DNA of 64,000 bases from a virus (IMGVR_UViG_3300022671_000005:64001-128000), one strand, 5' to 3'; counted from the stretch's first letter, positions 51,554 through 53,817 are shown. Translations and numbers: made by a program. Notes: a model not told the origin generated them from the sequence alone.

Positions 51554-51581
51554 GGTAGTAGTCCAAATATGGACTACTACC
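51554..51581 (+). terminator. 12-bp-stem hairpin
   Basis: GGTAGTAGTCCA-aata-TGGACTACTACC. Confidence 0.7.
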
Positions 51582-51667
51582 TCTATTTTCACTTTCTACT
51601 TTTTAATTTTCTTTTGATATGGTATACTAAAAGAAGGAACATATTAACACAATACTCGGAGTTAAGA

Positions 51668-53231
51668 ATGTCTGAGAATCAACAATTCTTGCACTCAACT
51701 TACAAAAAGAATAAGATACAAAAAGATATCTATACAGATGCACTAATGATCTGCTCTAAAGACATAGAGACAGGTGAACCTAAATTCACAACACATGTGA
51801 ATCCAAAACGTATAATGTATACAGTAAAACCTATGCTTAGAAATGAATTTACTGTGATGAAGGAAGCTCACCACATGAGAGACCTTGAAGCTAGGTCTGT
51901 ATACAATCATGAGTTAGAAAACCAACTTGCTAAAGCATTGGGTATGTATCACTATGGATATGTCAGACCTGAAAAAGTTTTGAATAGTCCATACAGTGCA
52001 GGTAACGATATATCCATAGATGTACTATATAAACATGAGATGAATAGTAAGATACCTAGAACAGCAGACCGTTATACTGTAGGTGGATTTGACATTGAAA
52101 CAGATGTTGTTAATGGTACCGATGCTATACTCTGTATTTCATATGTTAGTGACGACCATACTGTTTATTTATCTATACTCAAATCATTCCTTAAAGGGCA
52201 AGTTGATGTAGATAAAATTAGAGAGTGTTGCATTGAAAAGGTTTCTAAATTCATAAGCACCCTTAATCCAAAAGCTAAATCTGTTATAGATAAATGCCCT
52301 ATTAAGGATTACCACATACAGATATGTGATACAGAAGTTGAGCAGATTAAATGGATATGGGGTAAGGTGCATGAGAAGAAAGACAATGCTCTAAGTATCT
52401 GGAATATGGTCTTCGATATGGGCAAAATTATCGATAGGTTAGAATTCTATGGGGTTAACCCAGAAAGTGTCATGTGTCACCCTGAAGCACCTAATGAATT
52501 TAGAGTTTGTAATTTGCAGGAAGATACAACTCCCATTGAGAAACTTGGGCACATAACTTATAGATGGGATGTTATGCATTTATCTGGTTATACACAACCT
52601 ATAGACAGCATGTGTTTGTATAGTAGACTAAGACGTGTTGAAGGATTGAAGAGTAGTCGTGCTTTAGGTAGTGTGGCTGCAGAAACTATAGGTTCAACCA
52701 AGATGGATTTTGGTGATGATGGTCATTATCAGATGCAATCAGAAAGACCAGTTGAATATTGTGCATACAACGTTATTGATAGTTTAATATTACCTATACA
52801 TGACAAAGTGACTAATGATGTTGGAAGTATGTTTCTACTAACTGAAAATAGTGTCATCCCATCATTTGCAAAACAGACTGTTCAACTATCAGATGCGTTT
52901 TTCAAATATCTTAAAGATAGAGATATGGTTCCTGGTTCATGTAAAGGAAATATAAGTCTTGTATTAGATAAAGAGACTGGGGAGATAAAACCTTGGTCAA
53001 CTTGGTTATCTAAATATGGCAAGAGTATCAAAATAAGTCCTACCTACAGAATAAGTGAAATACAGCAGAGAATCTATGATGGGTTAATGATTAACCTTGA
53101 TGATATAATAAAAAATACTGGTGGTGGTGTACTTAATCCACTACTGACAGATAGAACAGGTGTGGCTCTATTGGAAGAGTCGGACAATGAAGTAAGTGCA
53201 GCTATGGCTGTTTCAGATTTGGATGTTGCGT
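51668..53231 (+). CDS. Family B DNA polymerase subunit (phiKZ gp82-like; 3'-5' exonuclease plus motif A), exon 1
   Basis: Start MSENQQ after GGAG. ExoI FDIETD, ExoII WNMVFD, ExoIII YNVID. Ends in DLDVAS at the 5' splice site. Confidence 0.88.
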
Positions 53232-53566
53232 CAACATACTCAGGCGCCTTACATTAGTAATAATGTAATGATAACCCTTTGAATTGCTGGAAATCCCTAA
53301 AGAACCTATGCCACATATATCACGAAAGTAGATATAGATGGAGTTGAAAGACAGAAAAAAGTTAGGTTATGAACTATGCCAAAAGCTAAGGTTTGAGACT
53401 TGTCTTAATTGATAAGTTAAAATGGGTAATCAGCAGGCAAGTTCCTAAGTTCAATACGAATATGGAAAAGCTCCAACGATCAACCTTTGACAAGGTGTAC
53501 TGGAACTTACTGTTCTGGGAAGCGGAGGGCATCCTAATATAGGATGATGATATGATCTACAACAAG
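53232..53566 (+). ncRNA. Group I intron (IA-like, no homing endonuclease ORF), 335 nt
   Basis: P1 GCGU/GCGC with U-G at the splice site; P10 ATACTCAG pairs with exon 2 CTGAGTAT; P2 with GUAA loop; P AATTGCTGGAAA; Q AATCAGCAGG; P7 GATCA/TGATC; P7.1/P7.2; P8; terminal G. Splicing restores DVASEYP. Confidence 0.93.
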
Positions 53567-53817
53567 CTGAGTATCCAAATGTTACTATAAAAATCAATTG
53601 TAGTAAAGAAACAAAGCTATCAACAGCATTATCAATACAGGGTCTAAAAACGAGTGCCATAACTGATTTCTTCAGTCATTATAGTGCTACATATGAAAAT
53701 GCAGTATATCTGTGTAATAAATATTTTGGACTCCCAAACTATGAAGAAATGGCAAGATTAGCAACTGAAAAAGTTAAAGGGTTTAATGCTAATAAACTAT
53801 TTACTCCATCGAGATAA
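53567..53817 (+). CDS. DNA polymerase subunit, exon 2 (spliced product 604 aa)
   Basis: (S)EYPNVTIKINCSKET...ENAVYLCNKYFGLPNYEEM...; in frame after splicing. Confidence 0.88.

Follow-up and report, generated by a model that had tools for sequence, protein, structure and literature searches.

The window analysed here is a 64,000-nucleotide (nt) stretch of viral DNA (IMGVR_UViG_3300022671_000005:64001-128000; positions are counted from its first letter), which belongs to a 142-kb IMG/VR virus record that is ~55% complete. It contains a truncated polymerase open reading frame (ORF; 51569..53257, +) ending in ...SDLDVASTYSGALH*, for which the gene caller chose position 51668 as the start and 529 amino acids (aa) as the length of the product (P0001). 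The frame runs into a 335-nt group I intron, which is followed by a second polymerase exon. Our best overall explanation, to which we assign a probability of roughly 0.8 as a joint figure for all of its parts, is that a phiKZ-like jumbo phage has its N-terminal family B DNA polymerase gene split in motif A by a genuine phage IA2-type group I intron, and that this intron lost its paired region 9 (P9) domain by deletion while its ribozyme continued to splice.

Both exons match the PHROG 3011 family ('DNA polymerase') in colinear order, exon 1 at profile positions 15-465 (E 1.4e-69) and exon 2 (82 residues after 53568) at positions 501-562 (E 1.9e-8), and the product with motif A restored belongs to this family. 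In a tblastn search, the family was annotated as 'DNA polymerase' in 294 jumbo-phage records, and the same 142-kb record encodes a phiKZ-type major capsid protein (PF25620). It should be mentioned that the PHROG 3011 phiKZ-type polymerase (~580 aa) stops ~75 residues past motif A and lacks motifs B and C. PF00136, which covers these two motifs, had no match in the 142-kb record, and the part for the fingers, palm-C and thumb must therefore either form a divergent gene of its own or lie in the half of the genome that is missing.

Excision of 53232-53566 converts the truncated ORF into ...DLDVAS/EYPNVTIK... (the slash marks the splice junction) with 82 further residues up to the TAA codon, in line with the roughly 80 residues that an earlier note on this DNA, made from the sequence alone, had proposed together with a restored motif A. 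The insertion point is the Ser codon of motif A, D-L-D-V-A-S/E-Y-P, and the 53231/53567 junction restores D-x-D-x-x-S-x-Y-P within the conserved block D-x-D-x-x-S-x-Y-P...N-x-S-x-x-T. Once spliced, the protein runs colinear with intact polymerases of 576-581 aa from Vibrio phages BONAISHI and Yong MS32, Xanthomonas phage Xoo-sp14 and Klebsiella phage Centimanus. Of three relatives described below, two (L009 and L011) also carry an intron and one (L010) is intron-less. The spliced reading across the junction in the window, L009 and L011 is AMAVSDLDVAS/EYPNVTIK, and all three products have AMAVSDLDVASEYPNVTIK at the junction, identical to the metagenomic, intron-less L010 protein P0003. Thus, the alignment with intron-less homologues that the earlier note had suggested as a check found the exon-2 sequence, in colinear order, both in L010 and in the intact polymerases.

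The exact junction was given by two helices, P1 and P10. The intron and exon 2 both begin with C, so that a one-base slide of the junction is possible on paper; the junction is fixed at 53231/53566 because of the U·G pair of P1 and the terminal G53566, the 3' end of the intron. In a fourth related intron, L013, a C-G pair of P1 is replaced by U-A. P10 is an 8-bp match at a fixed position, for which the expectation by chance is ~4^-8, and it covaries: CUGAGU/ACUCAG of the window is CAGAGU/ACUCUG in L009, a compensatory change from A-U to U-A, whose exon side is the synonymous change UCU to UCA. The splice junctions of the earlier note were accordingly exact, and the P1, P10, P7 and tail sequences lie where it had placed them.

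Comparison with the Rfam group I model also gave a match, RF00028, at 53222-53579 (+) with 60.3 bits (gathering score, 50 bits; E 8e-13) over the full model (1-253). It was the sole Rfam family match in the window and in the entire 142-kb record. The match end at 53579 is 13 nt beyond the real 3' splice site and is not the intron end, because the alignment forces the last hairpin of the model (P9) onto exon 2 with non-canonical pairs. This overshoot is the one point in favour of a true 3' splice site further downstream, with a P9 hidden in what we call exon 2. We consider that such a site has practically no chance of being correct and that homology has already refuted it: besides the non-canonical pairs of the hairpin placed by Rfam, EYPNVTIK... 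directly after 53566 is the second half of motif A and matches the intron-less homologue residue for residue without a gap, and the covarying P10 begins exactly at 53567.

The secondary structure was examined in a four-sequence alignment (A2; window, L009, L011 and L013), using the minimum-free-energy fold of the window intron, to which P1, P7 and P10 were added by hand. Standard pairs occupied 95.5% of the alignment cells. Two-sided changes were found in 30 of the 106 pairs, compared with 0-3 when the 3' partners were slid, and none of 500 shuffles equalled the observed values. These changes were located in P1, P2, P3, P5, the P5 extension, P6, P7, P7.1, P7.2, P8 and P10. In P7, the guanosine site retains its G-C and A-U pairs, and L013 has the compensatory form GACCA/UGGUC; P7.1 and P7.2 (helices 17 and 19) show compensatory changes from CC..GG to GG..CC in L009. 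The covarying core and the Rfam score bear out the earlier note's group I intron, and P7.1 and P7.2 (53483-53496 and 53500-53518) its assignment to subgroup IA. Its further claim of a homing endonuclease-free intron also stood: no ORF of >=60 aa lies wholly within the intron, and neither the 48-49-aa ORFs of the intron nor a 69-aa minus-strand ORF overlapping its 3' end had a significant Pfam match (best E 0.1). On the other hand, 'compact' and 'natural minimal ribozyme' do not describe an intron of 335 nt that has P2, P7.1, P7.2 and a 116-nt branched P5 extension, and in which only the 3' domain is reduced. In this P5 extension, an extra 22-nt hairpin (53397-53418) is present only in the window copy and is absent in L009, L011 and L013.

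In the window, only 9 nt, U plus ACAACAAG (53559-53566), separate the P7 3' strand from the splice site, and no P9 hairpin follows that strand; the absence of P9 reported in the earlier note is real, and it is unusual. To our knowledge, no consensus of the group I core is drawn without P9, whose loop usually docks on P5; we treated it as a usual feature of group I introns and not as a defining one. L009 is likewise devoid of P9, with a tail of 8 nt after UGAUC (U plus ACAUAUG). The P9-less form thus occurs in two independent assemblies, IMG/VR and Logan SRR12825371, and because both show the same form, the loss is not an assembly artefact. Phage IA2 introns are defined by P7.1/P7.2 together with an extended domain 9 consisting of P9.0, P9.1 and P9.2 (PMC4227781). 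This extended domain is absent in the window and L009 and partial in L011 (P9 and P9.1). Pairing partners for the 8-nt tail ACAACAAG were also sought, and the candidates were rejected as only short, non-conserved complements.

Coordinates of the exons, the intron and its structural elements in the window.
Feature	Position	Strand	Description	Support or remark
Exon 1	51668..53231	+	Exonuclease part and first half of motif A, ...DLDVA and base 1 of the Ser codon	PHROG 3011 match, gene-caller start
Group I intron	53232..53566	+	335 nt, IA2-like, no ORF, no P9	RF00028, intron-less homologue and covariation
P1	53228-53231 with 53244-53247	+	Exon GCGU with guide GCGC	U53231·G53244 wobble marks the 5' splice site
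P10	53236-53243 with 53567-53574	+	AUACUCAG (directly 5' of the P1 guide strand) with CUGAGUAU of exon 2	8 contiguous Watson-Crick pairs
P2	53249..53268	+	8 bp, GUAA loop	Three pairs change on both sides
P3	53275..53281 (5' strand) with 53523-53529	+	CCCUUUG with CGGAGGG	C-G to U-A in relatives
P4	53285-53290 with 53430-53435	+
P5	53295-53297 with 53424-53426	+		CCC/GGG to CUC/GAG covariation
Branched P5 extension	53303..53418	+	116 nt; GAAA-capped hairpins 53311-53341 and 53343-53352	Helices 7, 9 and 10 covary
P6	53436..53472	+	Three stacked helices (13-15)	All covarying
P7	53478-53482 with 53553-53557	+	GAUCA with UGAUC	Pseudoknot with P3
P7.1	53483-53496	+	Between P7 and the P3 3' strand	Subgroup IA mark
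P7.2	53500-53518	+	Between P7 and the P3 3' strand	Subgroup IA mark
P8 hairpin	53530-53546	+		U-A to C-G in two relatives
J8/7	53547-53552	+	AUGAUA
3' tail	53558..53566	+	U-ACAACAA-G, ends at G53566	No room for a P9 hairpin
Exon 2	53567..53817	+	Last two bases of the Ser codon, EYPNVTIK... and 82 more residues	Stop TAA 53815-53817

The relatives were obtained via a protein search and contig look-ups. No match was obtained when the polymerase gene was compared with phage records by megablast, IMG/VR yielded no close relative in a scan with a protein pattern, and two exact 20-mers from the P5 extension had no match in IMG/VR. The protein search gave three relatives at 65-67% identity (L009, L010 and L011). 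The polymerases of L009 and L011 are truncated at the same place as that of the window, each bearing an intron (RF00028, 67.6 and 84.4 bits, respectively), and the polymerase of L010 is intron-less (597 aa). The intron of L013 (69.8 bits) lies in the same codon of a polymerase that is ~40% identical. Three related introns thus share the insertion codon of the window, one without P9 (L009) and two with it (L011 and L013). The empty allele of L010 (L010:4519-4554) encodes the same SDLDVASEYPNV with GCC AGC GAG instead of GCG UCN GAG, and is consequently without the splice-site U and the P10 complement. This codon choice fits either co-adaptation of exon and intron or an empty site that is resistant to homing.

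Compared with the window intron, L011 (Logan SRR24908268) and L013 (GCA_029935835.1), both from metagenomic phiKZ-like phages, share the insertion site (GUUGCGU/ or GUUGUGU/), the P1 guide sequence, the GUAA-capped P2, P7.1/P7.2, J8/7 and the P5 extension with a GAAA hairpin; identity to the window intron over shared columns is 85.5% for L011 and 61.7% for L013. The difference is that both have a GNRA-capped P9 directly after P7, L011 with P9.1 and a P1-loop insertion in addition and L013 with an HNH_3 ORF, all of which the window intron lacks. In L011, UGAUCU is followed by the P9 hairpin CUAUAUA-GAAA-UAUAUAG and then by the P9.1 stem GGUUGAUG/CAUCAACC before the splice site. In L013, the P9 hairpin CUGUAUA-GAGA-UAUACAG is followed by >1 kb holding the HNH_3 ORF (L013:2143-2853, minus strand; E 8e-8), which lies within the intron 3' domain, opposite to the polymerase strand. 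The 3' splice site of L013 has three candidate G residues and an 8-nt complement, GUGGGUAC/GUACCCAC, and this 3' end was left unused.

These comparisons make it clear that the window intron, as judged from sequence, derives from introns that occupied this site and had P9. L011 and L013 have a hairpin insertion in their P1 loop that is missing in the window and L009. The two P9-less introns share both deletion boundaries, GCGU-CAACAUA... and ...UCUA-CA, and informative sites in the quartet numbered 6 for the grouping of the window with L009 versus 3 and 1 for the other groupings. One ancestral deletion, in the common ancestor of the window and L009 copies, is the favoured though not proven scenario, and it may have come about when an endonuclease gene that was lodged in domain 9 was lost imprecisely. 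As a separate observation, the P1-loop insertion of L011 (L011:1642-1680) holds GUAGAAGU, which is perfectly complementary to ACUUCUAC of the P9.1 loop (L011:1990-2035), with an estimated chance of a match of ~0.01. This is a candidate long-range pairing, and the P1-loop insertion and P9.1 may be interaction partners that were lost together.

Loss of a conserved helix and of an endonuclease gene is also what one would expect of a degenerating intron, and the window copy might be a decaying, splicing-dead remnant, with the polymerase a pseudogene or its two parts expressed separately. We consider this very improbable, because exon 2 offers no in-frame start codon close to its 5' end and yet shows a ratio of nonsynonymous to synonymous substitution rates (dN/dS) of 0.06-0.14, in the same range with or without the intron and with or without P9. 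Exon 2 must therefore be translated as part of a spliced mRNA, as far as these ratios tell. In addition, the host genes of the window and L009 are near synonymous saturation (proportion of synonymous differences, pS, 0.64), and over this distance the two P9-less copies keep the P3, P5, P6, P7.1, P7.2 and P10 stems through many two-sided changes. The interrupted motif A, moreover, is essential in family B polymerases. The earlier note had gone further and inferred that polymerase expression is under the control of the intron; no sign of regulation was seen, and the data say only that expression depends on splicing.

In the mechanism that we propose for the P9-less intron, P1 with its U·G wobble sets the 5' splice site after U53231. 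The 3' splice site after G53566 would be defined jointly by the terminal G, which reaches the guanosine site in P7, and the unusually long 8-bp P10, stacked directly on P1. Missing from the intron are the 3' domain in its entirety (P9, P9.1 and any endonuclease gene) and the hairpin insertion in the P1 loop, which are retained among the relatives at this site. The clamp from P9 to P5 could be dispensable by virtue of the GUAA-capped P2, the branched P5 extension and its two GAAA loops, and P7.1/P7.2, and the long P10 may add to this peripheral compensation; the length of P10 is 8 bp for the window copy, 6 (+2) bp for L009 and, with P9 present, 4 (+2) bp for L011. That a natural group I lineage splices autonomously in an essential gene without a P9 domain, relying on the extended P10 together with P2, the P5 extension and P7.1/P7.2, is in our estimate slightly better than an even bet.

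Several points weigh against this account. That the ribozyme still splices, and does so autonomously, is something that we infer from sequences. Every compensating element that we propose is also found in the P9-bearing relatives, and the trend in P10 length rests on three sequences and is only suggestive. With regard to the history of the deletion, plain identity places the window nearer to the P9-bearing L011 (85.5%) than to the P9-less L009 (81.1%); two independent deletions of P9 are possible, and the 6:3:1 sites are weak support for a single one. Furthermore, no gained cis substitute for P9 was found in the four-intron comparison or the covariation test. This last result also favours another possibility, namely that the intron is removed in vivo but is inefficient alone without P9 and depends on a helper acting in trans: an RNA chaperone or maturase-like protein of phage or host, or a separate RNA piece that restores the P9 clamp. 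In the literature, P9 is counted in the conserved catalytic domain P3-P7-P8-P9, P2 alone being mentioned as sometimes absent (PMC3984707), and the absence of P9 in an intron of Prasinoderma has been described as very unusual and read as a sign of a third piece or of accessory factors (PMC3873408). A separate P9/P9.1 piece had no match elsewhere in the 142-kb record when the P9/P9.1 segment of L011 was used as the query, the query being short and the record only ~55% complete, and the remaining core and periphery of the window intron are intact and covarying. We regard a trans helper, which the earlier note had raised as a possibility and of which nothing gave a sign, as unlikely and prefer the P9-less intron that splices by itself.

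The GAUCA/UGAUC form of P7, which the earlier note had singled out in place of the usual pairing, turned out to be a common phage variant. For the pattern CAACGATCA-N55-85-GATATGATCTA, IMG/VR gave 60 loci and the metagenomes at least 120, most of them with a normal P9 hairpin; among 133 distinct matches, most had a hairpin directly after P7, many of them GNRA-capped, although these pattern counts are indicative only, the hairpin detector being crude (its first pass called a 4-bp hairpin in the window exon positive). Six hairpin-less candidates from this pattern (L076, L084, L089, L128, L162 and L091) were rejected, as they had no RF00028 match at that place and are probably due to chance. The pattern matches also include an AU-rich subfamily with a conserved GACUAAUAAG motif. 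A metagenomic contig fetched with the pattern has a group II intron domain V-VI match of 65 bits (L084:1872-1960, minus strand), which is unrelated to the P9-less intron.

Two other introns came to light in phage records. In Bacillus phage vB_BceH_LY2 (L008:1739-3439), a group I intron (85.1 bits) interrupts the portal gene and is followed by two ORFs annotated as transposases and a RAGATH-18 RNA (70.9 bits), an IStron-like layout in a phage structural gene. In Vibrio phage vB_VmeM-Yong MS32 (L006:2424-2818), two ORFs annotated as 'hypothetical protein' flank an unannotated group I intron (53.8 bits), which is similar to the window intron in its P3-P5 region and GAAA-capped P5 extension and has a long 3' domain.

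What sets the window intron apart is that a P9-less intron in the catalytic motif of an essential polymerase has been kept, with compensatory changes, in two deeply diverged phages. The window and L009 introns, their P9-bearing sisters and the empty allele make up a natural, phylogenetically controlled test of the contribution of P9. If our explanation is correct, the window intron, L011 and L010 would form a natural deletion series for the contribution of the P9-P5 clamp, and this series could probe whether fast folding is less in demand in the phage nucleus, where transcription proceeds uncoupled from translation. There is also a lesson for annotation, in that gene callers truncate the polymerase at 529 aa and Rfam overshoots the 3' splice site by 13 nt.

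Among known systems, introns of Twort-like, Aeromonas and Bacillus phages match the window intron locally in sequence. Like the phage IA2 introns (T4 td, nrdB and sunY; Staphylococcus Twort; Bacillus SPO1 and Bastillevirinae; Aeromonas PhAER-3; Bacillus LY2), it has a P3-P8 core with P7.1/P7.2, a terminal G and P10, and interrupts a DNA-metabolism gene at a catalytic motif. P9 is present in those introns, usually accompanied by P9.1/P9.2 (PMC4227781 for IA2), and the PhAER-3 and LY2 introns have a GNRA-capped P9 directly after P7, whereas the window intron has a 9-nt link. Group I introns are also known in RNA polymerase genes of nucleus-forming jumbo phages, for example PhiPA3 gp210 (PMC11620839; review, PMC12908238). 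They share with the window intron the phage group and the location at conserved residues of essential genes, but they carry homing endonucleases, reside in RNA polymerase genes and have no reported loss of P9. For natural P9-less introns, the literature outside subscription journals gave only the case of Prasinoderma coloniale and engineered constructs. The mitochondrial rnl gene of this species has a trans-spliced group IB intron that was modelled without P9 (PMC3873408). It is, like the window intron, a natural group I intron with no P9 that can be drawn, but it is organellar, split and of subgroup IB, and a third piece, now missing from the model, or protein factors are suspected to be necessary for it, whereas the window intron is one continuous piece with a long P10. 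A second precedent comes from the laboratory and concerns the sunY intron. Mini-ribozymes derived from it that lacked the 3'-terminal domain were reportedly active in vitro (Doudna and Szostak 1989; Xu and Shub 1989), and these deletions are said to have been laboratory constructs assayed in trans or at raised Mg2+. Their activity would show that an IA2 catalytic core can dispense with P9, P9.1 and P9.2 in its chemistry, a point against dependence on a trans helper. Unlike these engineered constructs, the window intron is a natural cis intron in an essential gene, present in two diverged phages.

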